A stretch of 64,000 nucleotides of DNA, taken from IMG/VR virus record IMGVR_UViG_3300025732_000016; one strand, given 5' to 3'. Every line of letters starts with the position of its first letter. The first letter of the stretch is position 1. Under the pieces are notes generated by a model. That model had not been told where the DNA came from, made no database searches, and worked only from the letters and a program-made list of their open reading frames with translations. The DNA is from a virus. Taxonomy: Duplodnaviria; Caudoviricetes. Below, one piece after another: positions 21,412 to 46,077 of this stretch. The translations under genes and the position numbers were made by a program.

Positions 21412-22725
21412 CTACAGTGATTGACTTGCCAACGTTGCGAGCGGAGATCTTTCACCACGATCGAGCCTGATGTGACCGAAAAGCTGAGAGCCCTTTAACC
21501 TCTCGATCGCGATTGTCAATCCGTTCGAGAACCTGTCGAGGTAGGGAGTGTCAACCTGCTCTGTGTCACCAAGCAGGACCATCTTAGTTCCCTCACCGCA
21601 CCTCGTCACGAGAGTCTTGATCTCGTGGATGGTGAGGTTCTGGGCCTCATCAACGATGATATAACAGTTGCTGAAGCTTCTTCCTCGAATGTAAGAAATG
21701 GGGCTCACTTCAATGATCCCGCGCTGTCTCATGGTCTCGAAATAGGTCGTGTCTCGGAAGGCATTGCGAAAGTTGTCAACGATGGGCATGAGCCACGGAG
21801 CCATCTTCTCATCGAGAGTCCCGGGCAGGTAGCCGAGATCTCTTCCCACGGGCTCGATAGATCTTGTGATGATGATTCGCTCATACTTCTTCGAGTTGAG
21901 ACCAGCCATTCCTGCCGTAAGAGCAAGGAATGTCTTTCCCGAACCAGCAAGGCCTGTCATTGCCACGAGGGGCACATCACCATCGTTCAGGAGGTGGATT
22001 GCCGCTTTCTGCTCCTTCGACCTGGGCGTTATTCCAATGGAGTCGACCTTTGCTTTTGGCTGGATGATCTTACCACCTTTCACCATTCCAATGAGGCTCT
22101 TCTGCGGATTCGTCTCTGAGACTCCCACCACGAGAGAGTTCTCACAGAGGCTCTCAGAGTTCACTGGAGTAACCCACCCATGCTGGTAATAGGATTCCAT
22201 GTCCTCATCACTCAGAGTCATCTGAGATTGGCCAGAGTACACAGGGTTACCTTCTCGAACTGCCTGTGGAACATCCCTGTAATAGTCCTCGGCAGTGATG
22301 CCAATTGCATCGGCCTTGAGCCGGAGGTTGATGTCTTTTGTGACGATGATGACCTGGTTGTCGGGCTTCGAGTGACGCAGCCAGGCAGCAACCCACAGGA
22401 GCTTGTGGTCGCCCTTCTTCAGGTCGAACTCCTTCGGAATGAGACCGTCCTCGATGTCAGACATCCCGTCGCTGACGACTCGGATGTTAACGTCGTTCTC
22501 TGGGAGGTGAATCCCATCGTGGAGACTTCCCTTCTTCCTCAAAGAGTCCAGGGACCTGTTCACTTCTCTCGCCGCGCTGCCGATGAGCTCTTTTCGATCC
22601 TTGAACCTATCGAGCTCCTCGAGAGCTATGAGCGGAATGACCACATCGTTGCCAGTGAATGCGAAGATGGAAGAAGAATCGTAAAGTAGGACGCTGGTGT
22701 CAATGACAAATGTCTTTCTGCTCAA
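21412..22725 (-). CDS. phoH: PhoH family protein (PIN domain plus PhoH ATPase)
   Basis: 'FVIDTSVLL', 'ELDRFK', 'VTKDINLRLKA', Walker A 'GLAGSGKT', 'GYLPG', 'RGRSF', 'DEAQN', 'GDTEQVD', 'ERSPLA'. TTG start at 22725 with GAGGGA upstream. Confidence 0.93.
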   Translation of the reverse strand: MSRKTFVIDTSVLLYDSSSIFAFTGNDVVIPLIALEELDRFKDRKELIGSAAREVNRSLDSLRKKGSLHDGIHLPENDVNIRVVSDGMSDIEDGLIPKEFDLKKGDHKLLWVAAWLRHSKPDNQVIIVTKDINLRLKADAIGITAEDYYRDVPQAVREGNPVYSGQSQMTLSDEDMESYYQHGWVTPVNSESLCENSLVVGVSETNPQKSLIGMVKGGKIIQPKAKVDSIGITPRSKEQKAAIHLLNDGDVPLVAMTGLAGSGKTFLALTAGMAGLNSKKYERIIITRSIEPVGRDLGYLPGTLDEKMAPWLMPIVDNFRNAFRDTTYFETMRQRGIIEVSPISYIRGRSFSNCYIIVDEAQNLTIHEIKTLVTRCGEGTKMVLLGDTEQVDTPYLDRFSNGLTIAIERLKGSQLFGHIRLDRGERSPLATLASQSL

Positions 22726-22782
22726 GTTATTGTCCCTCAGACAAGTTTCTATACATACTTCTGACTTTCGTAACCTTCTCTT

Positions 22783-23058
22783 ATGGCAAGAGAGAAACTT
22801 GAAGTCGTTCCCCACACTACCTGCTTTGCAGAGCACGAGAAGAGGTCACTCTCCTGTGAGAAGTCTTCCTGCCGAATGTGGGTAAAGGATGGTTCCTCGC
22901 TGAACTGCTGCCTCATAAAAGCGCGTGAGCCCCACACTCTCCAAGAGATCGGTGATCTCTTTGGCGTTACCCGCATGCGGATATGCCAACTAGAGAAGTC
23001 GATACTCCGGAAAGTGGAGGCTGCTAACGATCTGACTGAGCTCAACCCTTGCGCTTAG
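22783..23058 (+). CDS. Small sigma70 region-4 HTH protein with Cys/His-rich N-terminus
   Basis: 'HTLQEIGDLFGVTRMRICQLEKSILRK' matches sigma region 4.2. Upstream residues include C, H, C, C and CC. Confidence 0.8.
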   Translation: MAREKLEVVPHTTCFAEHEKRSLSCEKSSCRMWVKDGSSLNCCLIKAREPHTLQEIGDLFGVTRMRICQLEKSILRKVEAANDLTELNPCA

Positions 23059-23646: not shown

Positions 23647-23866
23647 TTGCTTTTTCTCCTTCGGGAGCGATGAGCTCCTCTTTGTTGATGATGTGAGGCT
23701 TGATGACCTCTAGTACCGAGAGCATCGCTTCTCGGTTCTCTAACTCCAGGCTGAGAAGCTCAATGAGCTTCATTCTCTGGTAGTCAGTGACTCCAAAATC
23801 GTTTATTCTCTGATTGATCTCGCGGCATGTCTGAATCTGCCTGAGCCAATCTGTGTCGATTGACAT
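23597..23866 (-). CDS. Hypothetical protein
   Basis: Coupled ORF, helical, 'IELLSLELEN'. Confidence 0.6.
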   Translation of the reverse strand: MSIDTDWLRQIQTCREINQRINDFGVTDYQRMKLIELLSLELENREAMLSVLEVIKPHIINKEELIAPEGEKASGEFDPGDLDRDSGNR

Positions 23867-24333
23867 TAGAATGTCTCCGTCATGTCGTATGACTCGATCT
23901 TGAACTTATTCGAGCCCTCAAAAGTGAGAGTCTTTCCCTTCACTTTACCATCCTCTGACTGCCTCGTCAAGACTATTCTCTCACCCCATCTCTGGTTTGA
24001 GTAGATGAAGTGAGCTTGTTCCCAAGTAGCTATGTCACACTCATAGCTTGCAAGAACATTAGAGAGCTCTGTGGGGATCATAAGCGAGATGTCTTTGACA
24101 GTGATTATCGACGATGATTTTTCTTTCGTAGTGATCTCAGACTTGCAAAAGTCAATGACAGAATGGATCACTCCGCAATTCGTACACTCAGCGTCCTTTG
24201 GTATTACGTTACCACCATCGTCCAACACCGAGAACACTACGAACGAGTGATACACAGGATTGGGCAACCTCCTTAAAGTAGGGAGGACGCAATGGCACTG
24301 CACGAGATGCTTGATCCCTTCCATTCTGCTCAC
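23866..24333 (-). CDS. Hypothetical protein, putative Zn-binding
   Basis: 'HLVQCHC', 'CTNCGVIH...C'. Overlapping start/stop with neighbours. Confidence 0.65.
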   Translation of the reverse strand: MSRMEGIKHLVQCHCVLPTLRRLPNPVYHSFVVFSVLDDGGNVIPKDAECTNCGVIHSVIDFCKSEITTKEKSSSIITVKDISLMIPTELSNVLASYECDIATWEQAHFIYSNQRWGERIVLTRQSEDGKVKGKTLTFEGSNKFKIESYDMTETF

Positions 24334-24590: not shown

Positions 24591-25046
24591 TTACCTTGCA
24601 CTCTTATCAGCCAGTGTTGAAGATACCCAAGAGTTAGGCTTCACCTGGCACTTGAAGCCGTAGGCTCCCACCATTGCAGTGAGCTCTTTTACGTACTTCG
24701 AAGACTTGTGGACGGCAGTGTTGAGATCGAGGTGAACCTCTGGGTCCCTTCCAAACTCATCTCGAATTTCGCTTGCAACTGTGAGAGATCTAACAGCCTC
24801 CTCAGTAAGCCGCTGGTGTAGGTGGCGAAAATCAGACTTTTGCGCCTGGTCCCTGACGTAGAAGAACCTGCCTCCCTTGCCCGGGTAGTACACTGCAATC
24901 ACTGTCGCAAACACCCACTGTCCACCGAGCATGTGTGAGTCTGATCCAACGAAGATCTGGACTTCCTTGTCACGAATGAGAGACTCGAGCTCTTCTGTTT
25001 TTGCCGTCTCTCCGCTTGGCCACTTCCACTTTCTTGTCGATAACAA
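24591..25046 (-). CDS. RNase H-like YkuK (DUF458) family protein
   Basis: 'IFVGSDS', 'FATVI', 'GGRFFY', 'RL.EEA.RSL', 'VHLDLN', 'VKPNSWVSS.LADK'. Confidence 0.8.
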   Translation of the reverse strand: MLSTRKWKWPSGETAKTEELESLIRDKEVQIFVGSDSHMLGGQWVFATVIAVYYPGKGGRFFYVRDQAQKSDFRHLHQRLTEEAVRSLTVASEIRDEFGRDPEVHLDLNTAVHKSSKYVKELTAMVGAYGFKCQVKPNSWVSSTLADKSAR

Positions 25047-26232
25047 GGGCGCCTCCCGTATTTCTAACTAGCTGTCTGAACGCTTCATACGTTGAGAGGG
25101 CAATTTTGTAAGAGTCACCTGGGTACGCCCTACACCCAATCATCGTGATTCCCTTTCTCCTTGACACGAGGAAGCATCTCATGCCATGGTCAAATCTTTC
25201 TTTCACTATCTCTCTTGTATCGCCGAACTCTTCACCGATGCAGACAGAAACTCTCCTCGAAGAGATTCTCGAGATGCGATTCTGCAACATTCGCAAGATA
25301 TCAGGATCGCTGAACTGTGAGATCTCACCCCGCAGCTTTCTCAATAACTCATCTCGCCCAGCAGTATCTCTCAAGTGAACCTTGAGCTTACCGTTCTCTA
25401 CGACAACATCGTGACAGTTAGAGTCGTCCTCGTGGGAGATGAGGTTGACAGTCTCCTGCCCAATGACCGTGCTCAAGTCTGAGATCGTAAATTCGTCCTC
25501 GACCGAGGTTCCGGGAGTGAGGGGCACGATGTCAAAAACTCCCCTCTGGTTGTTGGCGAAGATCGTGCTGGCCACCTCTGAAGAGAACGCTCTCGCAACG
25601 AGCAGGACTCGAGAATTGTCAAGTGAACACTTCTCGAGGAATGTGTTCACTTGACCGACGCTCTCGATGACCCCGTCAAAAACGACTATTTGTCTGGAAG
25701 TTAGGGATCGAGAGGTGTGAAAGCTCGGAGAGACTATCACTGGATAGGACGATGACTCGTCAACAGAGATGTGTGTAATGCCTCCGACTGAGACTGAGAC
25801 ATTCCCTGTGGCTCCCGCCTGCCCGATGCTGTCGAGTAACAGGCTTCTCACCGTCTCGTCTTGGACATCGTCGATGAGAGCCGGGAGGTCGCTCTCCAAC
25901 ATCGTCCTTGTACCCGATGCCACCAGTTTTTCGCCTGATAGAAGACGCAAGAAGAGGTATGAAGAGGCGGGTGAAGCCTGCTCAGCCCTGTACGCCGACA
26001 ACAGGACCAATGAGCGAGCGATTCTTTCAATGTCACTCTTGGACTTCCAAGACGACAGGACCCTGAGAGAGTCTGCGGGTGACCCTCCCAGTGCCCTGTC
26101 CTTGAAGACCTCGACTATCGAAGAACCGATAGTCTCGATAGTCCCTTGAGCTATCTTCCTCGCCGCGGCAAGGACAGACTCACCGTCACCAGTGAGTCGT
26201 CTAGCTGTCTCTCCAGAGGTTGTTGGCGGCAA
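24970..26232 (-). CDS. Highly divergent GroEL/Cpn60-like protein
   Basis: Apical-domain-like 'IVVFDGVIESV..V..FLEK...VLLVARAFSSEV..T...N..RG...IVP', then 'LQNRISRI...V.V.IG' (cf. LQERLAKL.GGVAVIKVG). Probable TTG start at 26232 with GAGGAG 10 nt upstream. Confidence 0.65.
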   Translation of the reverse strand: MPPTTSGETARRLTGDGESVLAAARKIAQGTIETIGSSIVEVFKDRALGGSPADSLRVLSSWKSKSDIERIARSLVLLSAYRAEQASPASSYLFLRLLSGEKLVASGTRTMLESDLPALIDDVQDETVRSLLLDSIGQAGATGNVSVSVGGITHISVDESSSYPVIVSPSFHTSRSLTSRQIVVFDGVIESVGQVNTFLEKCSLDNSRVLLVARAFSSEVASTIFANNQRGVFDIVPLTPGTSVEDEFTISDLSTVIGQETVNLISHEDDSNCHDVVVENGKLKVHLRDTAGRDELLRKLRGEISQFSDPDILRMLQNRISRISSRRVSVCIGEEFGDTREIVKERFDHGMRCFLVSRRKGITMIGCRAYPGDSYKIALSTYEAFRQLVRNTGGALVIDKKVEVAKRRDGKNRRARVSHS

Positions 26233-28126
26233 AGGTGATAATCTCCTCAGCAGATTCTGGTGTGTAGCCGTAGTCTTGTACAAGCGCATTGACCATTTCT
26301 GAGTACTTCTTCTGCTGCTCGTTGTCTCTGCTCTTTGACTTCGTGACAATTCGCGCCATGTCCTTCACTGAGGAGATGAGGTAGCCCTCGATCGCCTCAC
26401 GGAGGGGCTCGTAGGAGCGGTAGTCGACCTTCGTTCCGCGCCGAATCTTCGCGAACATGTAGGCCGTCACGTCAGCTCGGAACCCGTCCTTCATCGAGCC
26501 CGTGATCCCGATCTGCTCCTCGAGAGCCTTCATGAACTTCTCGTCAGGCTCTCTCTCCTCGGAGGTGACCCTGTCCTTCATCTTCTGTCGAGTCGTGAAG
26601 GCCTCTGCGTTGTCGAGGTAGTTGTCGAAGAGAGACTGGGCCTGCTCCTCGTAGGCGGTGACGAACGCCTTTGCGATCTCTCCCTCGAGGATCTTCAGGT
26701 ACTCCTCACGGATGACCTTCTGGAGGATCTCGAGATAGTTCTTCTTCTTCTCCTCGTCGACAACCTGCTCCTTCACCTGCTTGATGAGAGCTTCGACGAC
26801 TCTCATCGGAGTGATGAAACCCTTGTCAGAGTCGGTGAGTGCAGAGTCAATTGCCTTCGTGATGAATCGGGTAGAGATTCCCTCCATACCCTCGTGCTTT
26901 GCCTCATCACGGAGGTCAGTGATGTCGACCTTGCGCGTCCTGCCCTTCTCGACAATCTCCTGGCCGTCGTAGATCTTCATCTTGGTGAGGAGGTCACACT
27001 TCTGGGAAGGCTTGAGGCGGCTCATCACCGAGAACATTGCCGCGACCTTGATCGTATGGGGAGCGAGGTGATACTTGAAGTCGGACTTGCGAAGCATCTT
27101 CTCGTAGATCTTCATCTCCTGCGTGAGCTCCAGGACGTATGGAACCTCGATCTTCACGACGCGATCGAGGATGGCCTCGTTCGTGTGCTCAGACTTGAAG
27201 CGATTCCACTCTGCCTCGTTGCAGTGTGAGAGGATGACACCGTCGAAGTAGAGCATCGAGTTCTTGCCCGGTGTCGGAACATTCTTCTCCTGGGTCGCAG
27301 TGAGGATCGTGTGGAGGAACTCGATCTCGTTCTTGAAGATCTCGACAAATTCCACCACACCGCGGTTACCGACGTTGAATGCACCGTTGAGGTTCAGGAC
27401 TCGGGGATCGTCCTCGGAGAACTTGTCCAGCTTTGAGATGTCCTCTGAGCCGATGAGGGCCGAAACGTCCTGAGAGTTGGCATCCATGGGAGGGACGACC
27501 GCGATACCCCTGCGCGCTCTCTGCGAGAAGGATGAGCGGACCACAGGGAACTTCTCGTACTCGCCCTTGAACTCTTCCATGAGCCTGTATCGACAGACCG
27601 GACAGAGGTCTCCCTCGATGTGGACACCGAGGATCTTCTCGAACTCCTCCCTCAATGACCTCGGAAGGAGGTGAAGCGGCTCCTCGCGAACTGGGCAGCC
27701 ATCGAGATGGTAGACGGGCTCTGCAGCCTTCTCAAGAGCCTTCTTCACCGCGTCGGCAAGTGCGCTCTTTCCTGATCCGACAGGTCCCATGAGAAGCAGG
27801 ACCTGCCTGCTTTCCTCACCCTTCAGGGCAGCGGACTTCAGGAATCGCATGAGCTTTGCAATGACGCGCTCATGGCCGTAGAATTCGTCCCTGAAGTAGC
27901 TGTAGGTCTTTAGCTTGTCGCTGCCGAACAGCTTTCGGCAGCGAGGATCAGTCTCATCCATTGTGCTCACACCGTATGACTCTACGGCGTCAACGAGTCT
28001 CCTCGCGGCGAGCTTTGTCACGTCAGGATCTTCCTTGACGAGCTTCAGGTAGTCGATGAAACTACCCTTCCAAGAGTCCTTCTGCGACTCAACCCTTTGC
28101 TTCTTAATGATGTCGAGAAAATCCAC
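26201..28126 (-). CDS. prkA: PrkA/YeaG family AAA+ protein (serine kinase annotation)
   Basis: Walker A 'GPVGSGKS', 'CPVREEPLHL', 'GNRGVVEFVEIFK', 'LLTATQE'-like 'ILTATQE', 'H.NEAEW', 'EAILDR', 'EGMEGISTRF'. Confidence 0.93.
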   Translation of the reverse strand: MDFLDIIKKQRVESQKDSWKGSFIDYLKLVKEDPDVTKLAARRLVDAVESYGVSTMDETDPRCRKLFGSDKLKTYSYFRDEFYGHERVIAKLMRFLKSAALKGEESRQVLLLMGPVGSGKSALADAVKKALEKAAEPVYHLDGCPVREEPLHLLPRSLREEFEKILGVHIEGDLCPVCRYRLMEEFKGEYEKFPVVRSSFSQRARRGIAVVPPMDANSQDVSALIGSEDISKLDKFSEDDPRVLNLNGAFNVGNRGVVEFVEIFKNEIEFLHTILTATQEKNVPTPGKNSMLYFDGVILSHCNEAEWNRFKSEHTNEAILDRVVKIEVPYVLELTQEMKIYEKMLRKSDFKYHLAPHTIKVAAMFSVMSRLKPSQKCDLLTKMKIYDGQEIVEKGRTRKVDITDLRDEAKHEGMEGISTRFITKAIDSALTDSDKGFITPMRVVEALIKQVKEQVVDEEKKKNYLEILQKVIREEYLKILEGEIAKAFVTAYEEQAQSLFDNYLDNAEAFTTRQKMKDRVTSEEREPDEKFMKALEEQIGITGSMKDGFRADVTAYMFAKIRRGTKVDYRSYEPLREAIEGYLISSVKDMARIVTKSKSRDNEQQKKYSEMVNALVQDYGYTPESAEEIITFAANNLWRDS

Positions 28127-28134
28127 GTTCCCTC

Positions 28135-29460
28135 CTACGAGATCTCAAATTCTTCATTTTCTACGTCAGTGAACAGCTTGACGGGACCGTGCCAGATGTT
28201 CCTGATGAGCTTGACGCAGTTGTCTGCGTAATCGAGCTCGAGGTCCCTTCCGTCATGTTCATGCCGCAGTTCTAATGTATTGTCCTTTGCCACGTGATCG
28301 ACGTATATCGTCGGAATCATATTGCCGGCAATGCTCTGCAGGAGGGCGGCCCTCACCTCCTGCCAGCTTTCGTCGTCTTCGACAATGTCGTCAACTGTCC
28401 AATCAGGGTTCTTCTTGCCCTTCGGACTGAAGGTGAAGAGGTTGAGCTCTCTCGCCTTCTCCTCGGTGAGGTACTGCATGATGAAGTTCTCGTCGTTGCA
28501 GACCTCTCTCGCAAGGAAGCACTCCTCTATGCCGAATCTCTTCTCGATGTCCTTGAAGATTTCAAAACCGAGGTGGTATGGGTTGATCTTGAGACCCCAC
28601 GGTCGAAGGACAGCGTTGTGAGTCTTGAGGAAAGGGAGGTGATGCTCATCAGCGAGCTCAAGGTCATGGAGAATTCTGTAGTGCCAGAAGCTCGCCCACC
28701 CCTCATTCATAACCTTTGTCCTGATCTGCGGCCAGAAGTAGAGAGACTCGTCATGGACTATCGAGATGATGTCCCGCTGCCAATCTGTGAGCTTGTGATT
28801 GTTGTCAAGGACAAACTGGAGGATGTCATACTCAGGCTCAAGCGGGAGGTCATCGATATTGAAGTCCTTCCACTCTCCCTTCTCGTCGTTCTTGATGAGG
28901 TCGATGTACTTCTTACGAAGCTCTCTCTCGGACGGTCTCGTCCTGCCGCGACGATCGGTCTGGTAAGTGAATGCGTGGCAGGCATCGATGATCTTCTCCA
29001 CGGCCTCAATCCCTATCGTCGGGTCCTCGATGTAGGCCTTAATCCGCTTTCCGGCATTCCTGAACCTCATCGTGACGGTCGCGGCGTCAGTGTCCTTGAA
29101 CGTCCGATTGTTCTTGAAGAAGTCCGAGTGGCCGACGCAGTGCGCCATGATGAGAATCTGGAGGTACAGCGGGTTCTCCAGCATCAGGTATGCGATTGAC
29201 GGATCAGAGTTGATGATGAGCTCATACGGAAGGCCCTCAGCGCCCGCGTTGTACATGAAGTGCGTCCTCTCGAACGTCTTTCCGTACGACCAGTGTGCAT
29301 AGTGAGAGGGCATCCCGTGGTAAGCCATGTGACCGATCATCTCACGGTAGTCACAGGTCTCATAGGCTATCGGGTACCAGTCGAGGCCGTGCTTTCTCGC
29401 GATCTCGCAGATCTTCTCGTCCCATTCCTCGAGATCACTCAAGTTGTAGTCACCCATCAC
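28135..29460 (-). CDS. spoVR: SpoVR/YcgB family protein
   Basis: 'GMPSHYAHWSYGK', 'YELIINSDPSIAYLM..N', 'AHCVGHSDFFKNN', 'TKVMNEGWASFWH', 'NPYHLG', 'HDGRDL'. Confidence 0.93.
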   Translation of the reverse strand: MMGDYNLSDLEEWDEKICEIARKHGLDWYPIAYETCDYREMIGHMAYHGMPSHYAHWSYGKTFERTHFMYNAGAEGLPYELIINSDPSIAYLMLENPLYLQILIMAHCVGHSDFFKNNRTFKDTDAATVTMRFRNAGKRIKAYIEDPTIGIEAVEKIIDACHAFTYQTDRRGRTRPSERELRKKYIDLIKNDEKGEWKDFNIDDLPLEPEYDILQFVLDNNHKLTDWQRDIISIVHDESLYFWPQIRTKVMNEGWASFWHYRILHDLELADEHHLPFLKTHNAVLRPWGLKINPYHLGFEIFKDIEKRFGIEECFLAREVCNDENFIMQYLTEEKARELNLFTFSPKGKKNPDWTVDDIVEDDESWQEVRAALLQSIAGNMIPTIYVDHVAKDNTLELRHEHDGRDLELDYADNCVKLIRNIWHGPVKLFTDVENEEFEIS

Positions 29461-30632
29461 TCACTCCCAAAGAACTTGCTAAAGACAGGCCAAACGTCAT
29501 CCTTACTCACCAGCGTGGCAGTGCGAAGAACTGGCGAGAGAGCCTTGAGATTGTTCATGAGCTTCGAGGCAGAGTCACTCTGCCAAGCGGGAGTCGAGCC
29601 CTTCGGCTTGATCTCACAGTAGCCGACCATCTGGCTGATGTCACAGAGATCCCTGTACATGTCGAAGGCCTTCGCGTTGTCTTCTTCGAAGTTGTCGCCG
29701 TCCGTGCAGTGGAACACATAGACGTTCCAAGCCGAAGGATGGTACCGCTCGTTCGCAATCTCAATCGCGAGCTCAGGAGCCGAGGAGACGTGCGTGCCAC
29801 CGGATGATCCCCTCTTGAAGAAGGAGTCCTCATCAGTCTCGAAAGCCTCAGTCGTGTGACCGATGAAGACAATCTCGACCTTCTCGTACTTGTGGCGGAT
29901 GAACTGGTAGAGGAGGAAGTAGAAGGACCTTGCGATGAACTTGATGTCCTGGGTCATCGAGCCGGAGACGTCCATCATGAAGAAGATGACGGCGTTTGTC
30001 GCCTCCTTCGGTTTCGCCTTGATGTGGTGGTACCGGAGGTCGTTGTCGTGGAATGGGAAGACCTCATTGCCGTCCTCATCCACCTCCACCTCTCCGGCCC
30101 TTCGTGCTGCCGCGAGGCGCTTTATCCGCTGGATGGCAGACTCTCTCTTGTCGAGCCGCGGTGGAATGCCCTGGGGGCGTGTGCCATGTCGCTTTGGCCT
30201 CTCCTCGAGAACTGTTCGCAGCTTCTTCCTCTCTAGCTCTGGGAGATTCAACGAGGAGAAGAGGTACTCTGCGAGCTCTTCGAGGGTAATCTCGACCTCG
30301 TAGAACTCCTCTCCCTTGTCCTTACCAGCCTTGCTGCCGGAGCCCTGCCCCTGCTGTTGACCCTTCCTTACGACCTGCCCCTTTTGGATGTCGGCGTTAG
30401 GAGCAGAGCCCACCTGCTTCTGACCCTCGTTGTCGCCATAGACGAACTGCCACTCCTTGATGCCACGAACAGGAATGCGGATCTTCTTCTTCCCATCCTG
30501 CCCAATGATCGACTCTTCAGAGACGATATCTGTGATGCCGTCTTTGATCGCTTTCTCAATCTTTTGCTTGTGACGAGAACGGTCCGCTGCGGAGCGGTCT
30601 GCTGAAGTCTTGTGTTCACGGAAGATAGACAT
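29457..30632 (-). CDS. YeaH/YhbH (DUF444) vWA-domain protein
   Basis: 'D..RH..KI...I', 'IPVRGIKE..F', 'LNLPEL..K', MIDAS 'MDVSGSM', 'SGGT..SSA', 'DGDN'. Confidence 0.92.
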   Translation of the reverse strand: MSIFREHKTSADRSAADRSRHKQKIEKAIKDGITDIVSEESIIGQDGKKKIRIPVRGIKEWQFVYGDNEGQKQVGSAPNADIQKGQVVRKGQQQGQGSGSKAGKDKGEEFYEVEITLEELAEYLFSSLNLPELERKKLRTVLEERPKRHGTRPQGIPPRLDKRESAIQRIKRLAAARRAGEVEVDEDGNEVFPFHDNDLRYHHIKAKPKEATNAVIFFMMDVSGSMTQDIKFIARSFYFLLYQFIRHKYEKVEIVFIGHTTEAFETDEDSFFKRGSSGGTHVSSAPELAIEIANERYHPSAWNVYVFHCTDGDNFEEDNAKAFDMYRDLCDISQMVGYCEIKPKGSTPAWQSDSASKLMNNLKALSPVLRTATLVSKDDVWPVFSKFFGSE

Positions 30633-30672: not shown

Positions 30673-31041
30673 TCAGCCGTAAGACTTCTCTTTTGCCCAC
30701 TGCACTGCTGGATACAGGAAGTCTGGGCAATTCTCTTCAAGAGTTCGCCACGGCACGTACATCATGCCCTTCCTTGAGTTCGGCTTTTTGCCGCTCATCA
30801 CGACGAAGGTGACAAGGTCGCCGACTTTGTAAGAGTCTTCGGTGAGGAAATCACTCTCACTCACCCGAATGCCGCAGTCGCGCCAGGCTTCTCGCAGTGC
30901 AGTTCTCATGAGGGGTTCGTTGTGTTCTCTGCTGCCCCGTGGAATGTTGAGATAATCTCCGTCCTCAAAGACCAGGACTTTGTCGAGTGTGGGGCTAACA
31001 ATGAAGAGGCCAGCGCCCTCTTGGCGCCTGTAAGTTGTCAT
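30673..31041 (-). CDS. Nudix-fold protein with degenerate Nudix box
   Basis: 'PRGSREHNEPLMRTALREAWRDCGI' follows Gx5Ex7RE, but the usual EE is RD. Confidence 0.65.
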   Translation of the reverse strand: MTTYRRQEGAGLFIVSPTLDKVLVFEDGDYLNIPRGSREHNEPLMRTALREAWRDCGIRVSESDFLTEDSYKVGDLVTFVVMSGKKPNSRKGMMYVPWRTLEENCPDFLYPAVQWAKEKSYG

Positions 31042-31427: not shown

Positions 31428-31781
31428 CTATGTATCTCTTGCGTAGTCATCCTCAAGGCGAACGACGTCATCGAGCTCAGGAGTTGAGACCTCAACAATG
31501 TCAACGTCTCCCTTGTAAGCGCAGAAACGGTGGACAGTGCCGGGAGTGACGTGGAATGTGCTTCCTTCGCAGTAGTCGAACCGGTGCTCGACATTTGGAC
31601 CAGTCTCGATGGTCAAAAGACCGCTAAGAACCCTGATCGTCTCTTCTTTCTTGAGATGGTACTGCCTGCTCAGACGATGACCATTGTTGATGTGAAGAAT
31701 CTTACCAACGTACTTTGGCGTCTCAGCCCAAATCTCTTCGTGGCCCCAGGGCTTTTTTACTATTCTCACGCTTTCCCTCAT
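31428..31781 (-). CDS. Cupin (mannose-6-P-isomerase C-terminal-like)
   Basis: 'VKKPWGHE', 'LSRQYH..KEET', 'PGTVHRF', 'EVSTPELDDVVRLEDDY'. Confidence 0.85.
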   Translation of the reverse strand: MRESVRIVKKPWGHEEIWAETPKYVGKILHINNGHRLSRQYHLKKEETIRVLSGLLTIETGPNVEHRFDYCEGSTFHVTPGTVHRFCAYKGDVDIVEVSTPELDDVVRLEDDYARDT

Positions 31782-32184
31782 AAACCAGATCATATCCTAC
31801 AACAGCAGAGAAAGCGTTTACAAGCTCACCGGCAACTTTGTTGGCTTCGTCTTCTAAATCAGAAGAGAAGTGAAGCTCGTCATATTCGATTCCGCCATTT
31901 TCATGTTGAGCCAAGTGAGATAGTTCGTGAGCCATCGATCTTAGAACATCTACGAACGCTCTTCCCTTTCCGTAGATGCGAACACTTCCCTCCTCAGGGA
32001 AGCAAATTGCAGTCGTTTCTATTGAGTAACGCTTTCGGTCGTCAACGATGTAGATCGAGTAGTCACTCTCCAGCTTCATAGCTCTCACACAGAAATCTAC
32101 AAAATTTCGCATCAGCTTCTTTTTCTCGCCCCCAGGAACGAGATCAAGGGAAGTGAAGAATACTCTGACGTTACCTCTTTTCAT
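31723..32184 (-). CDS. Putative zinc metallopeptidase-like protein
   Basis: 'LRSMAHELSH..Q' (HExxH) followed by 'EDEAN..AG'. Confidence 0.6.
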   Translation of the reverse strand: MKRGNVRVFFTSLDLVPGGEKKKLMRNFVDFCVRAMKLESDYSIYIVDDRKRYSIETTAICFPEEGSVRIYGKGRAFVDVLRSMAHELSHLAQHENGGIEYDELHFSSDLEDEANKVAGELVNAFSAVVGYDLVYEGKRENSKKALGPRRDLG

Positions 32185-36165: not shown

Positions 36166-36546
36166 CTACTCTACGGAGATGACCCGCTTTGTCGTCTTCT
36201 GAACGGGAACCTCAACGTAGAGAATGCCAGCATCGTAACGTGCCGAGATGCCCTCCTGCGTGACATTCTCACCGAGGCTCCAGGAGCGGAAGTAGGTGGA
36301 CTTCGTGCCGTTCACCTCACGAGTTCCGGTGACGGTGAGGTAGTCATTCTCGGTGGAGACCTCGATGTCAGAGCGACTGAGGCCCGGCATCTCCACGGCA
36401 ATGGAGTAGCCCTTGTCGTTCTCGTTGATCTGTGCACGGGTCTGTACGGCCGTCTTCGTGGTGCCACGATTGCTTCGATCGTCGAGGAACGTGTCGAGGA
36501 AGGTGTCGAAGCTGGCGTGGGGATTGCGGGTCATGAGGCTGAACAT
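36166..36546 (-). CDS. Small heat-shock protein (Hsp20/alpha-crystallin)
   Basis: 'VEMPGLSRSDIEV', 'FRSWSL', 'ISARYDAGILYV.VP'. ATG at 36546 with AAGGAG SD. Confidence 0.92.
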   Translation of the reverse strand: MFSLMTRNPHASFDTFLDTFLDDRSNRGTTKTAVQTRAQINENDKGYSIAVEMPGLSRSDIEVSTENDYLTVTGTREVNGTKSTYFRSWSLGENVTQEGISARYDAGILYVEVPVQKTTKRVISVE

Positions 36547-36602
36547 GCTGTTTTCTCCTTGTTTCTGGTTGACCGGAGGAACCATTCCTCCATGATCTAA
36601 AG

Positions 36603-36866
36603 TTAAACACCGTTCTTGGAGAGAACACCCTTTTTCTTCACTTTCTTCTCAATTCTTGTGACCCACTTTGACCAGTCCTCCCTCTCATACTCTTCCTTCG
36701 TGCAAACACAGTGCTCGTGAAAGACTCCGATGAATCCGAGCGGGCACTCTGGGACTCCAGCGAGGTAGAGGCGGCGCTCATCGTCAGGGTGAACAGTTCC
36801 CTCGAAACCACCGGAAGTGGGCTTGGTCACTGTCACCCTGACGATGGGTCCGGCGTACGTCCTCAC
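36603..36866 (-). CDS. Hypothetical protein (start uncertain)
   Basis: The frame carries 'VGDLVYVRTYAG...'. The nearest in-frame start is GTG at 36866. Confidence 0.4.
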   Translation of the reverse strand: MRTYAGPIVRVTVTKPTSGGFEGTVHPDDERRLYLAGVPECPLGFIGVFHEHCVCTKEEYEREDWSKWVTRIEKKVKKKGVLSKNGV

Positions 36867-36897
36867 ATAGACGAGATCACCGACCCTTCGCCGAGTC

Positions 36898-37452
36898 TCA
36901 TGCTGTCTTGAGTTGTAGCTGTCTGCGCTCGGAGGCAGACTCTGGAAAGAGCTGCCTTTCCAGCTCCCTACGTTCTCTAGCCTTCTCTCGTTTATTGCTG
37001 GGCCGCATGATCTCGGTGCAGAAGAGCTCGGTGAGCTCGGGGACCTCCGCACCACTCTCAATGGCTCTTTGGAGCTGAGGTGACTTCCTGATTGCAACTG
37101 CTACTCTCCGTACTGATTTCTTAACGCTGTGTTGATCGCTCGTGGTCATGTTGCTTCCAAGGCCGTTCTTATTGAGCTGGAAGACTCCCCTTGAGTTTCC
37201 ACTGTCCCCGACAGCCTTTGGATTGAATCTGCTCTCTGCGTAAGCATTCAGCAGGGCAGCCTTGATTAGTGGGGAATCGAACCCCTCATCTCTCATCACC
37301 TGCTCAATTTCGCAGGCCACTTCTCTATTTTCTATCTCGGTCGAAATGTCCTCACAGACCAGACCTTTCCTGTAGTGTTGCTCAACCTCGGGCTCAGGAC
37401 CTATGGGGGTCGTAAGGAGCAGGAGGAGAGCGAAATGCAGGTGCAGCATCAT
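36898..37452 (-). CDS. Lysozyme/lytic-transglycosylase-like protein with signal peptide
   Basis: Hydrophobic N-terminus 'FALLLLLT', then 'NAYAESRFNP.A.GD.G.SRGVFQL' (catalytic ES plus G..Q motif). Confidence 0.72.
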   Translation of the reverse strand: MMLHLHFALLLLLTTPIGPEPEVEQHYRKGLVCEDISTEIENREVACEIEQVMRDEGFDSPLIKAALLNAYAESRFNPKAVGDSGNSRGVFQLNKNGLGSNMTTSDQHSVKKSVRRVAVAIRKSPQLQRAIESGAEVPELTELFCTEIMRPSNKREKARERRELERQLFPESASERRQLQLKTA

Positions 37453-40949: not shown

Positions 40950-41316
40950 TGGTGGACCCGAGGGGAGTCGAACCCCTGTCCGAAGCATTATCATCCTTCC
41001 GAGATACGTGGCCTGCCGGAAGCTCACCGGCGAGTGTCGGAACCTTTGGTCCCCGTCACGGTGTCCTGTCTATCTTCGTTCCCCGACCGTCCACCGATCC
41101 GTCGGTTCACTGCGGGTCTGAAACTCACCCGGAAGGATTCGACCATTCTCCTTCCGAACGCCACGGGGTCTAGATGCCCCGGGACTTCAATCAGGCCGCG
41201 AGGGCCTCGCTGAAGTGGTCAGTGTTGTTGGCACTTACTTGCTTGGTCCGATGCGGGAGACCACCCCTGCCACGCCCTTCAGGAATCCGACACCCCGTCG
41301 AAGCCAGTACGGGCCC
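40950..41316 (-). ncRNA. ssrA: tmRNA; tag peptide ANNTDHFSEALAA (41191..41232)
   Basis: 5' GGGCCCG pairs with 3' CGGGUCC-A-CCA, including the G3:U70 Ala determinant. T-arm GGGG-TTCGACT-CCCC. Internal reading frame ends in ALAA*. Confidence 0.95.
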
Positions 41317-41421
41317 ATGAAATGATTGCGGCTTTGACCCAGAGCCGCGAACTGGCCGACCTACGATTCGAGCAGGATTGCTGTCAGGATACCTGCGGTT
41401 ACGATCCCTGATCAGGGGCGA

Positions 41422-41709
41422 TTAGGCCGGAGGAGTCTCGGCAGTGTCTCCGCCCGTGTCCTCGGTCCCGGTGTCGCTGGTGCCCGTGTCCGAGCCAGTG
41501 TCGACCGGGTCGGTGGCAGTGTCACCGGTGTCAGCCCCCGTGTCAACGGGGTCGATTGCAGTGTCAGCGGTATCAGCGGTGTCGCCGGTATCGACCGGAG
41601 TTCCCGTGTCGTCGCCGCACTCGACAGCGGTGTCCTCCTTCACCTCCTCATCAGTAGAGCATGCGAAGAGGAGGAAGGGGAGAGTGAGGAACAGAACTAC
41701 GAAACGCAT
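41422..41709 (-). CDS. Lipoprotein with Asp-Thr-Gly (DTG) repeats
   Basis: Signal 'MRFVVLFLTLPFLLFAC' (lipobox), then 'DTGDTADT/PVDTG' repeats. Confidence 0.8.
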   Translation of the reverse strand: MRFVVLFLTLPFLLFACSTDEEVKEDTAVECGDDTGTPVDTGDTADTADTAIDPVDTGADTGDTATDPVDTGSDTGTSDTGTEDTGGDTAETPPA

Positions 41710-41746
41710 TATTTTCTCCTTGTGTTGGAAAGGCTAAGTATGGGGA

Positions 41747-41833
41747 CGGAGACGGCAGGATTTGAACCTGCGACCAGCTTTCGCCGGTGATCCCTTAGCA
41801 AGGGATTGGTTTGAGCCGCTCACCCACGTCTCC
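41747..41833 (-). tRNA. tRNA-Ser(GCT), no encoded CCA
   Basis: Acceptor GGAGACG/CGTCTCC; anticodon arm ATCCC-TTGCTAA-GGGAT; long variable arm. Confidence 0.92.
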
Positions 41834-41841
41834 AAAGTAAA

Positions 41842-41930
41842 TGGCGGAAGGAGTGAGATTCGAACTCACGGTGGTGTTTACCCACGGCGGTTTTCAAGAC
41901 CGCTGCCTTAAACCACTCGGCCATCCTTCC
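41842..41930 (-). tRNA. tRNA-Ser(TGA)
   Basis: GCGGT-CTTGAAA-ACCGC; long variable arm; CCA end. Confidence 0.95.
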
Positions 41931-41934
41931 ATAA

Positions 41935-42009
41935 TGGAGCCCGAAGTCGGGATTGAACCGACGACCTGCTGCTTACAAGGCAGCTGCTCTACCACTGAGC
42001 TATTCGGGC
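41935..42009 (-). tRNA. tRNA-Thr(TGT)
   Basis: GCTGC-CTTGTAA-GCAGC; CCA end. Confidence 0.95.
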
Positions 42010-42034
42010 ATTGGTTCCTGTTAGGAACATTGTT

Positions 42035-42063
42035 AATGTAGTCACACCGTCAAAGGTGTACAC
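42035..42063 (-). promoter_or_regulatory. Sigma70-like promoter for the Thr-Ser-Ser tRNA run
   Basis: GTGTAC-N17-TACATT. Confidence 0.5.
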
Positions 42064-42082
42064 ATTGCTCTCAACTTCTTTC

Positions 42083-42205
42083 GGTTCACCAGTTGCTCTC
42101 TGTTGAACCCGGGTCCATGGTAAGGTATATCCTAATCACCTAAACCCGAGTAACACAGAGTATCACAGGGTTCAACGGGTGTCATCGTGGTTTCGGTGTG
42201 GAACC
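42083..42205 (-). ncRNA. Candidate structured ncRNA (family unassigned)
   Basis: Nested helices GGTTC(C)AC/GTGAACC, GTTGAACCC/GGGTTCAAC, GTGATAC/GTGTTAC and GGGTTTA/TGGACCC. The G-U pairs favour the minus strand. Confidence 0.45.
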
Positions 42206-42206
42206 T

Positions 42207-43301
42207 TCAAGCCAACCTCACAAGTCTGACCCAGTTTGCGTTGATCGCACCGAGTCCGATGACTTCCTTCTCCTGTGCGAAGAAGTTAACCTCTTCCATC
42301 TCAACGTCGTACAGGCCCTCGGCATCGAGAAACTTCCCAGAGTTCTCTCCTGAGCTCGCTGCAAAGATGACCGAGTATGTGTTGCTTTCCCACTGGCTAC
42401 GACGACCCAATGAGAAACCGTCAGCGACCTCAATGTCAGATGACCAAGAGGAAGAGAACCTGTCACCCGTGGGTGTGATCTCGAAATTGCCCCGCAGCTC
42501 CTGCTTCCCGCCGTCTGGGTCCAGCTCAGTGATGTCCACTCCCATCCTCTCGAGCTCATCTAGCGTGAGGGACATCCCGCGGAAGTATGTTCCGGGCGGA
42601 GCTTCCCTGAAGACGTCCGTGTAGAGTCCATCCCTGATGAATCCCATGATAAGGTTGGCCTGCTGCCTTGTGAGCGGCCTGTTCCCCTCAAAGTGGTTGA
42701 TGATGGACCGGAGGAGGGCAGACTCAACAGGCGTGTTCCTCTCCATCGGAGGACGCTTCTTGGCAGCCTGGCGCTGGGGTGAGAATGCGTACTTCCCAAG
42801 GGGCGAGCCAATGGGAGCCGTGGGCTCATAGGAGGCGGCATACTCAGCCTCCTCTCGCTCTGCCCCATCCAGCTCGGCAATCCGGCTCATCCTGAGAATC
42901 TCCTTCGACTGGCGCCTCATCTCCTTTCCGATTCTCTCGATGGCTCGTGAGACCCTGAGGTCCCTCCTGTCATCGTTATCCACGAACTTGACGAGCTGCC
43001 TGTAGACACCATCGAGGAACTTTCCACCAGGGTCGAATCCCATGACGCTCTCGAAGGGGATGTCGGGAGACTCTTCCCTGCCGTACTCATACGTGAACCC
43101 GGGAATTGCCTTCTGGAAGATCTCGACGTACTCTCCGTATGTCGGCCACCTCCCACTGATGTCCTTGAAGTCGCTTCGCAAGAAGTATCGCCAGAATTCG
43201 AAGACACCGTGGATGGAGTCTCCACCTGGGTGCTGGGACTTCGCTTCGGCGAGGAGGGTCTCGCGGATGAGATGTCGAAGCGTAGACTCAGTGATTCGCA
43301 T
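42207..43301 (-). CDS. Putative ADP-ribosyltransferase (R-S-E clade) with MRITES leader
   Basis: C-terminal 'TYFRGM' (R), 'FSSSWS' (S-x-S), 'QEKEV' (E-x-E). Confidence 0.55.
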   Translation of the reverse strand: MRITESTLRHLIRETLLAEAKSQHPGGDSIHGVFEFWRYFLRSDFKDISGRWPTYGEYVEIFQKAIPGFTYEYGREESPDIPFESVMGFDPGGKFLDGVYRQLVKFVDNDDRRDLRVSRAIERIGKEMRRQSKEILRMSRIAELDGAEREEAEYAASYEPTAPIGSPLGKYAFSPQRQAAKKRPPMERNTPVESALLRSIINHFEGNRPLTRQQANLIMGFIRDGLYTDVFREAPPGTYFRGMSLTLDELERMGVDITELDPDGGKQELRGNFEITPTGDRFSSSWSSDIEVADGFSLGRRSQWESNTYSVIFAASSGENSGKFLDAEGLYDVEMEEVNFFAQEKEVIGLGAINANWVRLVRLA

Positions 43302-43305
43302 GATA

Positions 43306-43905
43306 CTAACTATTCGGCCTCACGCCACTTCGCAGGACAATCTCGCAGATGTGGTCGAGCCTCTCGATGTGCTCGTACGCCGACCATGGGTCACCCGCCA
43401 CCGAGCACACCCCGTGGTTCGCCTGACCCACGACATCGAAGGCGAGCTTCCCGTTCCCGTCCAACATCGCGGAGGCAGTCGCACGTGCCAACTCAGGTGA
43501 TGTGGCAGGCAGGACCGGGACTGTCGGGCCCACCCTCGTGTACCGGCTCACCTCAGGGAACTCACTTGCGATCCTCTGCAGGTCCCAGCCTGCGTAGACA
43601 GCAGCGACAATGTGGGTCGGATGGACATGGACGACTGCACGGGTGGAGCTGTTACCCAGCTGGAGGAGACGGTGCATCTCCAGTTCACCGGATGGGCTTG
43701 AGTCCTTCGGCACGTCAAGCGTCCCGTCGAAGCCGAACCTCACCTTGACGACGTGTTCAGGATGGATGATGGTCTTACGCCAGCCGGAGGGTGTGATGTA
43801 GAGTGTCTGAGAACCTCTCTTTCGCAGCGAGATGTTACCGTCCCTCGTAGTTATCCATCCCTTGTCGTAGCATCTCCTCATCACATCACCGATAGCAGTG
43901 AGCAT
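43306..43905 (-). CDS. Class II aldolase/adducin family protein
   Basis: 'DGNISLR', 'ITPSG', 'SGELEMH', 'VVHVHP', 'NHGV'. Confidence 0.88.
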   Translation of the reverse strand: MLTAIGDVMRRCYDKGWITTRDGNISLRKRGSQTLYITPSGWRKTIIHPEHVVKVRFGFDGTLDVPKDSSPSGELEMHRLLQLGNSSTRAVVHVHPTHIVAAVYAGWDLQRIASEFPEVSRYTRVGPTVPVLPATSPELARATASAMLDGNGKLAFDVVGQANHGVCSVAGDPWSAYEHIERLDHICEIVLRSGVRPNS

Positions 43906-43934
43906 CTTTCCTCCGGGAGGTAAGTATTAAAAGA

Positions 43935-43962
43935 ATATGGCCCGGTAGAAACCGGGCCATAT
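43935..43962 (-). terminator. Intrinsic terminator after tRNA-Glu
   Basis: ATATGGCCCGGT / ACCGGGCCATAT 12-bp stem, followed by TCTTTT on the minus strand. Confidence 0.75.
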
Positions 43963-44036
43963 GGCGATCCCACCGGGAGTTGAACCCGGCTTCCGGGGAT
44001 GAAAACCCCGTGTCCTAACCGATAGACGATGGGATC
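43962..44036 (-). tRNA. tRNA-Glu(TTC)
   Basis: CGGGG-TTTTCAT-CCCCG; CCA end. Confidence 0.93.
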
Positions 44037-44040
44037 AAAG

Positions 44041-44116
44041 TGGTGGGACCAATGGGGATCGAACCCATGACCCTCGGATTAAAAGTCCGGTGCTCTACCT
44101 GCTGAGCTATAGTCCC
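44041..44116 (-). tRNA. tRNA-Lys(TTT)
   Basis: Anticodon loop CTTTTAA; canonical D and T arms; CCA end. Confidence 0.94.
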
Positions 44117-44145
44117 AAATGACCGGCCAAAGTTTGACCTATGAG

Positions 44146-44173
44146 ATTGTAACAAGCTCTCACAGGTTGACAA
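44146..44173 (-). promoter_or_regulatory. Sigma70-like promoter for the Lys-Glu tRNAs
   Basis: TTGTCA-N16-TACAAT with an extended -10 TG. Confidence 0.55.
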
Positions 44174-44184
44174 CTTCTCGGGAA

Positions 44185-45003
44185 CTATTTGATCTTGCAG
44201 GTCACTTTCTTCGCCGAAGCCTGATCGCCGAGGTCAACGGGCCAGAGAGCCTTCGCAGTCGCAGACTTGTCGAGGCCCGCGGGGACCGGGAACGTGATGC
44301 CAGTCACTCCCTCGATGGCAGAGATCGAGACTGCGCTGGGGAGCGGGTCAGAGGGCTGCTTCTCGATCTGCCTGAAGACGAAGGCGAGCGACTCTCCGGT
44401 CGTTCCGTCGATGACGATCTTGTAGAGGGAGTCCGGCACAACGACCTTGCTTTCGCCGATCGTCTTGCTCTTGCCGACCTCGTAGATGTTCCCGGCGTAG
44501 ACTGTGAGATTGTGCTTCCGTCCCCAAGCCCACGCACGGGTGCTCGCCTCGATGCCCTTCCAGACTCCCCGGTTGAGGTTCGGGAGCTGCGGGCTCATGT
44601 TGCTCATGAGGAACGATTCCTGCTCGGCCTGGAGGCTCCAGCTGAGGTCGGCGTCGGGAGTGAGGTGACCCTTGTCGTAGCCCGACTTCGCGTAGTCACC
44701 GGGAGTGGACCTCCCGTCCTTCGGGAGAGACTCGTCTGCGACAAAAGCGTCCTTGCGAGGGACGCATCCAACAGTCTCTTCGGGCGTGACAGTCCACGCG
44801 GTCCAAACGGGGACCTTCGCGGTGTTGTCGTGGAGAGTCGCATAGCCCTCTCTGCAGAGGAGAGTCGTGTTCACTTTCTGGGACTGCGGGACTCCCCAGG
44901 GAAGCTCAGCCGAGCACTGCTCAATCGGCTTGTTGGGCTTCTGGTCCCACGCGAGGGCTACCAGAGGAAGCGCGAGCAGTGCTGCAATTACGAGTCTCTT
45001 CAT
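44185..45003 (-). CDS. DNA/RNA non-specific endonuclease (NucA/Serratia-like), secreted
   Basis: Signal peptide, 'SGYDKGHL.P' (DRGH-like), 'F.MSNMSPQ...LNRG.W..IE', 'VPDSLYKI'. Confidence 0.9.
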   Translation of the reverse strand: MKRLVIAALLALPLVALAWDQKPNKPIEQCSAELPWGVPQSQKVNTTLLCREGYATLHDNTAKVPVWTAWTVTPEETVGCVPRKDAFVADESLPKDGRSTPGDYAKSGYDKGHLTPDADLSWSLQAEQESFLMSNMSPQLPNLNRGVWKGIEASTRAWAWGRKHNLTVYAGNIYEVGKSKTIGESKVVVPDSLYKIVIDGTTGESLAFVFRQIEKQPSDPLPSAVSISAIEGVTGITFPVPAGLDKSATAKALWPVDLGDQASAKKVTCKIK

Positions 45004-45042
45004 GTTCTCTCCGTGTGCTATGTATGCTTCACGAAGAGAAAG

Positions 45043-45117
45043 TGGTTGGGGCGGAAGGATTCGAACCTTCGGATGTGGGAGTCAAAGTCCCATGTCTTAC
45101 CACTTGACGACGCCCCA
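45043..45117 (-). tRNA. tRNA-Gln(TTG)
   Basis: TGGGA-CTTTGAC-TCCCA; CCA end. Confidence 0.94.
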
Positions 45118-45118
45118 G

Positions 45119-45194: not shown

Positions 45195-45198
45195 AAAG

Positions 45199-45282: not shown

Positions 45283-45287
45283 ATTTG

Positions 45288-45963: not shown

Positions 45964-45997
45964 GTCTTAAGTATGAGGCAGACGCTCTACTAAGATG

Positions 45998-46072: not shown

Positions 46073-46077
46073 CTGTT

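Follow-up and report, generated by a model that had tools for sequence, protein, structure and literature searches.

The PrkA (YeaG), YeaH (YhbH) and SpoVR (YcgB) proteins form one of the most widespread bacterial modules without known biochemistry. In Escherichia coli, YeaG, also named SpdA, is required for the non-specific degradation of cytoplasmic proteins induced by starvation, which gives amino acids and ATP for new synthesis (October 2026; PMC13684143), and a long-standing description of YeaG/PrkA is that it regulates gene expression in starvation and sporulation (PMC4664914; PMC9512850). In six bacteria, yeaG, yeaH, and ycgB show mutual cofitness, from which a signaling pathway was proposed (bioRxiv 10.1101/072470). 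Regarding the proteins themselves, PrkA of Bacillus subtilis was reported as a weak ATP-dependent protease (PMC9512850); pure PrkA of B. anthracis belongs to clade III of the AAA+ proteins and has an aromatic pore loop, but showed neither protease nor kinase activity, and it alters sporulation transcripts (PMC13001217). Our literature search found no structure paper on PrkA. PrkA trios have been annotated in phages since phiYS40, for which SpoVR and a 'serine kinase' are annotated; SpoVR and PrkA are annotated in RsoM2USA, in both cases without functional work, and PHROGs lists all three families under unknown function. Here, we describe a complete trio in the virus record IMGVR_UViG_3300025732_000016 of IMG/VR, of which a stretch of 64,000 nucleotides was analyzed (hereafter the window). 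What is new in this copy is its coupling to a GroEL-like gene, a predicted binding of YeaH to SpoVR, and a zincin-like model of SpoVR. The trio is encoded by the following genes:

29457 to 30632, minus strand: DUF444, the YeaH/YhbH homologue, 391 amino acids (aa); PF04285 at E 3e-107, 359.7 bits against a threshold of 27
28135 to 29460, minus strand: SpoVR/YcgB homologue, 441 aa; PF04293 at E 7e-119, 397.6 bits against 27, and PF24755 (SpoVR_C) at 28.4 bits against 27.6
26201 to 28126, minus strand: PrkA/YeaG homologue, 641 aa; AAA_PrkA PF08298 at E 1e-143 and PF06798 at E 8e-80

An earlier note on this DNA, made from the letters alone, had placed three intact genes at 26201-30632, with a MIDAS in the von Willebrand factor A (vWA) domain of DUF444 and a Walker A motif in PrkA. 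The open reading frames (ORFs) match these coordinates exactly on the minus strand, all three products score above the Pfam thresholds, and both motifs are present. The genes are tightly packed, as the DUF444 stop codon overlaps the SpoVR start (GTG 29460 or ATG 29457) and only 8 nt separate SpoVR from PrkA. They are thus adjacent and co-directional, but the order yeaH-spoVR-prkA and the phage replicon set them apart from the cellular operon, in which prkA, yeaH, and spoVR follow each other on a chromosome. Among bacterial trios, the closest are short ones of a Binatia type, which share the three families, their architectures and motifs, and the H-x3-H form of the SpoVR motif; these bacterial loci, however, all have the order PrkA-DUF444-SpoVR. 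The E. coli proteins are more distant (32–34% identity for PrkA, 33–35% for SpoVR, and about 31% for DUF444). They have the ATPase and MIDAS residues in common with the phage proteins, but belong to a longer proteobacterial subtype with an H-x4-H motif in SpoVR and a SpoVR model of 505 positions, and their genes lie in two operons under RpoS and NtrC control.

Among isolated phages, Thermus phages phiYS40, TMA, and phiLo and Ralstonia phage RsoM2USA also carry PrkA with adjoining SpoVR and DUF444. Their PrkA proteins are only 31–34% identical to ours, and none of these phages is, as far as examined, T4-like with a coupled GroEL-like gene. The trio of RsoM2USA has the canonical order, and its PrkA nests in a Burkholderiaceae-type group; it therefore stems from a separate capture. 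In phiYS40 (1699-7824), DUF444 (YS40_056) and SpoVR (YS40_057) stand ahead of PrkA (YS40_059), as in the lake phage, so that the permuted order may predate the T4-like clade described below or have arisen in convergence with it. An unrelated protein of 616 aa (YS40_058) lies between SpoVR and PrkA in phiYS40, a position at which the lake phage has no gene; we considered YS40_058 as a second PrkA and dropped this idea, as it is only 16% identical and does not align. The traits by which the trio studied here is a variant are thus its permuted order, the GroEL-like coupling, and the T4-like jumbo lineage that carries it.

All three proteins retain the residues by which their families are recognized. 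PrkA has the two-domain architecture of the family (479 and 269 bits against a Pfam cut-off of 25, residues 22–632), matches the PDB entry 9xip at E 1.5e-108, and contains the Walker A motif GPVGSGKS, an NRGVVEFVE box, and KLDKF with the aromatic pore-loop phenylalanine. The Walker A motif and the NRG..E..E box were found in 80/80 PrkA copies of the phage clade, and the pore-loop position, assigned by reference to PMC13001217, is F or Y in all seven copies aligned. With 415.5 bits against the cut-off of 576 of the NCBIfam equivalog NF011999, the window PrkA is by its sequence a divergent family member and not an E. coli-type equivalog. A cysteine cluster (GCPVREEP...GDLCPVCR; window 26740-27850, PrkA residues ~93–462) is common to phage and Binatia-type PrkA and not found in E. 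coli YeaG; this cluster may form an insert of the AAA+ domain that binds zinc. In DUF444, an N-terminal segment predicted to bind SpoVR (residues 1–24 and 58–93) is followed by a linker rich in G, Q, and K; the vWA domain, whose MIDAS is intact, forms the C-terminus. The MIDAS residues (D221-x-S223-x-S225, T280, and D311) are invariant across 32 phage homologues, and DxSxS is kept in every phage DUF444 copy recovered. The protein aligns end to end with the YhbH model TIGR02877 (2–388 against 2–371 of 371) at 385.5 bits, below the cut-off of 468, which marks a short YhbH-like architecture rather than an equivalog. SpoVR likewise stays below the NF008737 cut-off (267.6 against 679 bits); its residues H55, E79, H106, H110, E252, N292, and Y294, as well as G109, G253, and A255, are invariant, E. 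coli YcgB included.

The phage to which the window belongs is an uncultured T4-like jumbo phage from freshwater. Its genome, judged by complete relatives of 293–318 kb, is roughly 300 kb long. Besides the trio, the window contains 19 tRNAs and a one-piece tmRNA and genes for DNA ligase, a helicase, a methyltransferase, glycosyltransferases, sugar-pathway enzymes, and an adhesin. The search of IMG/VR returned 158 loci with a PrkA 65–91% identical to that of the window, 80 of which were kept for locus comparison. The order DUF444-SpoVR-PrkA was found in 75/75 kept loci that reach all three genes, and in the remaining five a contig end interrupts the trio. Genes for a T4-type large terminase and a Gp23-type capsid protein are present in all five long relatives, of which one with the trio (G001, IMGVR_UViG_3300007513_000001) measures 293,409 bp, has direct terminal repeats, and is rated 100% complete. 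PrkA is also present in a 318-kb record, the sole additional record of at least 90% completeness that was selected by its capsid gene only. Four further fragments selected by the capsid gene (32–52% complete) have no PrkA in the portion present, which is uninformative as a test of a core gene. That the lineage is uncultured follows from its terminase, which is at most ~41% identical to those of isolated phages, with Flavobacterium 'immuto' and Microcystis Mel-JY01 as the nearest. At 176.5–180.1 kb, G001 has two tandem Gp23-type major capsid paralogues (640 and 631 aa), where the other four long relatives have a single one.

The earlier note had itself raised the possibility that the trio is a bacterial chimera in the assembly. 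We rule out chimera or mis-assembly: a PrkA protein identical to that of the window is present on contigs of up to 208 kb and in one ENA assembly, 96–97% of the stretch is covered in each of two freshwater runs from different studies, synteny extends over the 80 viral loci, and the complete 293-kb T4-like genome and dozens of viral contigs contain the same operon.

To trace the origin of the phage trio, cellular PrkA proteins were sought by a scan of one genome per prokaryotic species. The nearest are 54–58% identical and come from metagenome-assembled genomes (MAGs) labeled Binatia, 'delta proteobacterium', Geminicoccaceae, Udaeobacter, and others, some on chromosome-sized contigs of 1–2 Mb, and their loci have the canonical PrkA-DUF444-SpoVR order throughout. 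All three phage proteins are nearest to this Binatia-type subtype (PrkA 54–58%, DUF444 39–48%, and SpoVR 37–45% identity); outside this neighborhood, a comparison of PrkA with representatives at 50% identity gave nothing above ~40%. In the maximum-likelihood tree, phage PrkA forms one clade (Shimodaira–Hasegawa-like approximate likelihood-ratio test 97; stem of 0.51 changes per site) beside the Binatia-type bacteria, while phiYS40 PrkA sits on a very long branch. A recent transfer from a host is ruled out, as identity to cellular PrkA does not exceed 58%. The only match above this value (68%) comes from NHDW01000006.1, a contig of 305,838 bp in the species-representative MAG 'Methylococcaceae bacterium TMED69'; it carries a trio in phage order along with the PhoH, helicase, and cytidylyltransferase genes of this phage clade, and is therefore almost certainly a mis-binned jumbo phage. 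Regarding selection, synonymous divergence (dS) is saturated in most pairs, which limits the analysis to ranks of nonsynonymous divergence (dN) and a few ratios. Of the eight genes tested, PrkA has the lowest dN (0.06–0.12, compared with 0.14–0.35 for the helicase and 0.17–0.43 for PhoH), and dN/dS of the trio is 0.03–0.09 in the few pairs with computable dS. We conclude that the trio truly belongs to the phage, with intact genes that are under selection.

Structure prediction pointed to a contact between two of the three proteins. DUF444 and SpoVR were predicted as a complex with a score of 0.84, and the best of three controls scored 0.00. Among solved complexes, 58 of 80 attained that mark, compared with 2 of 110 mismatched pairs. 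At least 78% of the contacts are common to the runs, and the partners have predicted local distance difference test (pLDDT) values of at least 87. The predicted interface comprises DUF444 residues 1–24 and 58–93 and SpoVR residues 54–60, 286–296, and 337–417, both sides being rich in invariant residues. Neither family has a solved structure that the prediction could have reproduced. According to the prediction, the DUF444 N-terminus clamps SpoVR.

The AlphaFold (AF2) model of SpoVR (pLDDT 80) was further compared with known structures by exhaustive structural alignment. Almost all of the top 50 matches are zincin catalytic domains or zincin-like, with Z-scores from 10.2 to 5.2 over 160–190 aligned residues, including M1, M2, M3, M4 (thermolysin and LasB), M9, M30, M32, M49 (DPP III), M61, ACE, DUF885, YbeY, and MATCAP. 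We take the matched chain ranges of the zincin enzymes to contain their HExxH sites. In SpoVR itself, H106-x3-H110 is invariant and lies on a long helix; N-E252-G-W-A is invariant as well and is reminiscent of the 'NEGFA' ligand motif of M1. A search of the ESM Atlas gave nothing usable by features and SpoVR clusters only by shape, and our literature search found no paper linking SpoVR or YcgB to metallopeptidases. We regard the modeled zincin-like fold as a lead on the level of the fold.

The genes around the trio were analyzed as well, and the GroEL-like, YkuK RNase-H-fold, and PhoH genes that the earlier note had seen nearby are all real and located where it had put them:

30673 to 31041, minus strand: small Nudix-like protein directly upstream of DUF444; PF00293 at E 0.036 (weak), phrog_1198 MutT/NUDIX at E 7e-4
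24970 to 26232, minus strand: degenerate GroEL-fold protein, 420 aa; phrog_5725 chaperonin at E 3e-10, Foldseek against GroEL/Hsp60 at E 5e-19
24591 to 24932, minus strand: YkuK-type RNaseH_like protein, 113 aa; PF04308 at E 1.4e-22
23866 to 24333, minus strand: conserved 155-aa protein (o155) downstream of the module; no Pfam or PHROG match
21412 to 22836, minus strand: PIN-PhoH ATPase, downstream, with synteny kept in most relatives; PF02562 at E 1e-52, PF13638 at E 2e-30

The most prominent neighbor is the GroEL-like gene. Its profile matches in 64/76 phage loci, in 56 of them directly behind prkA, and in 0/79 bacterial trio loci; among the trio loci compared, a GroEL-fold partner coupled to prkA is a new, phage-only feature. 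The start of the gene is most likely TTG 26232, which is also where close relatives start, so that the gene overlaps the last 32 nt of prkA. The public assembly calls a gene of 310 aa from ATG 25902, which looks truncated because relatives have ORFs of 400–470 aa at this position. The AF2 model (pLDDT 86) shows a predicted three-domain Cpn60 fold and aligns with GroEL and Hsp60 over ~460 columns at a Foldseek probability of 1.00 and 12–16% identity. No match to Pfam Cpn60_TCP1 was found, the NCBIfam model GroEL3 gave 20.9 bits against 600, and an alignment of 29 homologues has 5 near-invariant columns only, with a mean column identity of 24% and no conserved nucleotide-binding motif seen. Because of the missing Pfam match and the near lack of invariant residues, the protein is likely an ATPase-dead chaperonin. 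With known phage chaperonins (GroEL of PHROG 5725 and gp146 of phage EL), it shares the three-domain group I fold, whereas it is ~100 residues shorter, lacks both the Pfam Cpn60 match and a conserved ATP-binding motif, and sits behind prkA. Homologues of o155 occur in 52/65 eligible phage loci and 0/79 bacterial loci, and those of the YkuK-like gene in 23/65 eligible phage loci and likewise in no bacterial locus, while 31/72 phage loci have a Nudix-like homologue. Inspected by eye, the Nudix box of the window protein (REAWRDCGI against REUxEExGU) looks degenerate, as the two catalytic glutamates appear replaced. The evolutionary path we propose would comprise one ancient capture of a complete, short, Binatia-like PrkA-YeaH-SpoVR module by the phage lineage, its reordering to yeaH-spoVR-prkA, and its coupling to the phage-specific, probably ATPase-dead GroEL-like protein.

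Some further observations concern the rest of the window. The array of 19 tRNA genes and a standard one-piece tmRNA (tag ANNTDHFSEALAA) extends over 40950-49888 on the minus strand, with small ORFs interspersed. PhoH and HSP20 genes lie near the trio besides the tRNAs and tmRNA. Cupin (mannose-6-P isomerase-like) and weak IrrE/M78 peptidase-like genes lie between the helicase and the trio, and HSP20 and phage lysozyme genes further on; these four were read from Pfam marks on public gene calls (31428-32184 and 36166-37452, both minus strand). A protein of 938 aa encoded at 61020-63836 on the minus strand combines an OmpA-like anchor with a region that is similar to MtsC, a MYXO-CTERM cohesion protein; this match (E 2e-20) stays below the cut-off. 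This MYXO-CTERM-like adhesin, the sole such hint in the window, weakly suggests a Myxococcota-type host.

The earlier note had allowed for the trio not being expressed. Four lake metatranscriptome runs contain short contigs that are 97–100% identical to parts of all three trio genes and of downstream neighbors; such contigs give no strand, level, or timing, may include DNA carry-over, and prove nothing for uncovered bins. They are a weak hint of expression.

Regarding function, we tentatively favor, at somewhat less than even confidence, a trio that acts as an ATP-driven machine degrading or remodeling host proteins to feed phage replication. PrkA would assemble into an AAA+ ring during infection and grip proteins through its aromatic pore loop. 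YeaH would clamp SpoVR by its N-terminus, and its vWA/MIDAS domain would dock onto PrkA or onto substrates, while SpoVR with its zincin-like fold would supply or control the hydrolytic step. The outcome would be a bulk turnover or remodeling of host cytoplasmic proteins, as with the YeaG-dependent degradation in starved E. coli, and the freed amino acids and energy would go to a very large virion in nutrient-poor hosts. This would be plausible for a phage of such a size that replicates in nutrient-poor lake or sea water and brings along tRNAs and a tmRNA. What we infer here is the proteolysis, what it acts on, and what SpoVR and the GroEL-like protein do.

Several points weigh against such a machine. 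We know of no biochemical activity established for the trio as a complex. The catalytic glutamate of HExxH is absent in all SpoVR subtypes examined, the motif reading HC[VIA]GH for phages, HV[YF]GH for their nearest bacterial relatives, and HA[AG][FY]GH/HACYGH for proteobacteria. A Z-score of ~10 is middling for a helical protein, a Foldseek search of the SpoVR model against the PDB gave no match at E 0.001 or better and no peptidase link, and hhalign of 139 SpoVR sequences against E. coli PepN stayed below a probability of 2%. In the window, no T4 late promoter (TATAAATA) was found, and scans for sigma-70 promoters and terminators do not exceed shuffles. From the literature, the protease activity of B. 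subtilis PrkA is weak and possibly due to a contaminant (PMC13001217), and the study of starvation-induced protein degradation covers yeaG only, not yeaH or ycgB (PMC13684143).

A more specific form of the degradation machine, which we consider unlikely, is a so far unrecognized split FtsH-like protease, with PrkA as unfoldase, SpoVR as a zincin-fold subunit for hydrolysis or gating whose H-x3-H...E site is atypical, and YeaH as a vWA bridge clamping SpoVR. A nucleotide-independent GroEL-like cage or adaptor would complete it for an autophagy-like bulk digestion of the host proteome. FtsH/YME1, in which a clade-III AAA+ domain is fused to an M41 zincin, offers an analogous pairing of an AAA+ protein with an aromatic pore loop and a zincin-fold protein. 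In the phage, however, the parts are separate and bridged by a vWA protein, SpoVR is without the HExxH glutamate, and there is no membrane anchor; FtsH thus serves as a working analogy, and no membership is implied.

A doubtful but serious competitor is a regulatory takeover, in which the trio would not be a bulk protease but a signaling or remodeling switch. Its targets would be few, namely host regulators such as RpoS and factors of the stringent response or of development, and it would either keep a starved or dormancy-prone host in a condition suited to a long infection or prevent the host from becoming dormant or sporulating. This would agree with the described role of YeaG/PrkA in starvation and sporulation gene expression (PMC4664914; PMC9512850), with the altered sporulation transcripts that B. 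anthracis PrkA causes without detectable protease activity (PMC13001217), and with the signaling pathway proposed from cofitness (bioRxiv 10.1101/072470); the Nudix-like gene directly upstream of the trio and the Myxococcota-type host hinted at by the adhesin point the same way. However, two careful studies of PrkA found no kinase activity (PMC9512850; PMC13001217), and the phospho-regulated T217 of B. subtilis PrkA aligns, in our reading of the sequences, with an isoleucine in the phage protein. Furthermore, the module is kept across many relatives, the window stretch comes from lake water, where we judge spore-forming hosts to be unlikely, and a full set of AAA+, vWA, and zincin-like proteins together with a chaperonin-like one is a large apparatus for a switch. 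The nearest cellular lineages (Binatia, Geminicoccaceae, and others) are, to our knowledge, not known as spore formers. The proposal of the earlier note that the phage controls host dormancy or development is unsupported as far as sporulation or development is concerned: the module is clade-wide and anciently inherited, the stretch was found in freshwater/lake runs, and E. coli, which does not sporulate, uses the module for starvation proteolysis (PMC13684143).

The other role that the earlier note had offered, an assembly chaperone, stays a live rival, if a rather improbable one. In the manner of MoxR-type AAA+ proteins with vWA partners, the trio and the GroEL-like protein would here serve the folding, assembly, or activation of an enzyme or structure of the phage, such as its large capsid, instead of acting on host proteins. 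Pairs of AAA+ and vWA/MIDAS proteins are commonly maturation chaperones, as in RavA-ViaA, CbbQ-CbbO, and NorQ-NorD. The GroEL-fold gene is coupled to the module in phages only, an HSP20 gene lies nearby, and assembly of a jumbo T4-like capsid is demanding, with Gp23 homologues of 640 aa in the relatives and a duplication in G001. Yet the module was borrowed whole from bacteria, where no phage client exists, and was acquired independently by unrelated phages (the Burkholderiaceae-type copy of RsoM2USA and another in the Thermus phages). The operon, moreover, is surrounded by auxiliary and nucleic-acid genes and remote from the structural block, the distance to the capsid gene being ~57 kb in one genome (G002), and the GroEL-like protein is almost without conserved residues and has no conserved ATP-site motif. 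A use in counter-defense or superinfection, by degrading or sequestering host immune proteins or proteins of competing phages, is very improbable: AAA+/vWA and protease modules do occur in conflict systems and the window has other host-interaction genes (glycosyltransferases, methyltransferase, and adhesin), but PrkA is far more conserved than its neighbors, unlike fast-evolving conflict genes, and the bacterial homologues are housekeeping starvation genes.

For the module, the analysis yields a sharper, directly testable mechanistic hypothesis. A large and abundant lineage of lake and ocean jumbo phages keeps the complete trio among its most conserved genes, which argues that the module is self-sufficient, portable, and valuable even for one infection cycle. 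With their tightly coupled genes, the predicted YeaH-SpoVR interface, and an extra GroEL-like partner, the phage versions are compact, co-evolved protein sets for biochemistry. If the recycling of host proteins holds true, protein turnover would join nucleotide and photosynthesis genes as a resource managed by viruses in nutrient-poor waters, and if the split FtsH-like protease holds true, protein recycling would be a viral auxiliary metabolic function comparable to the recycling of host DNA by T4.

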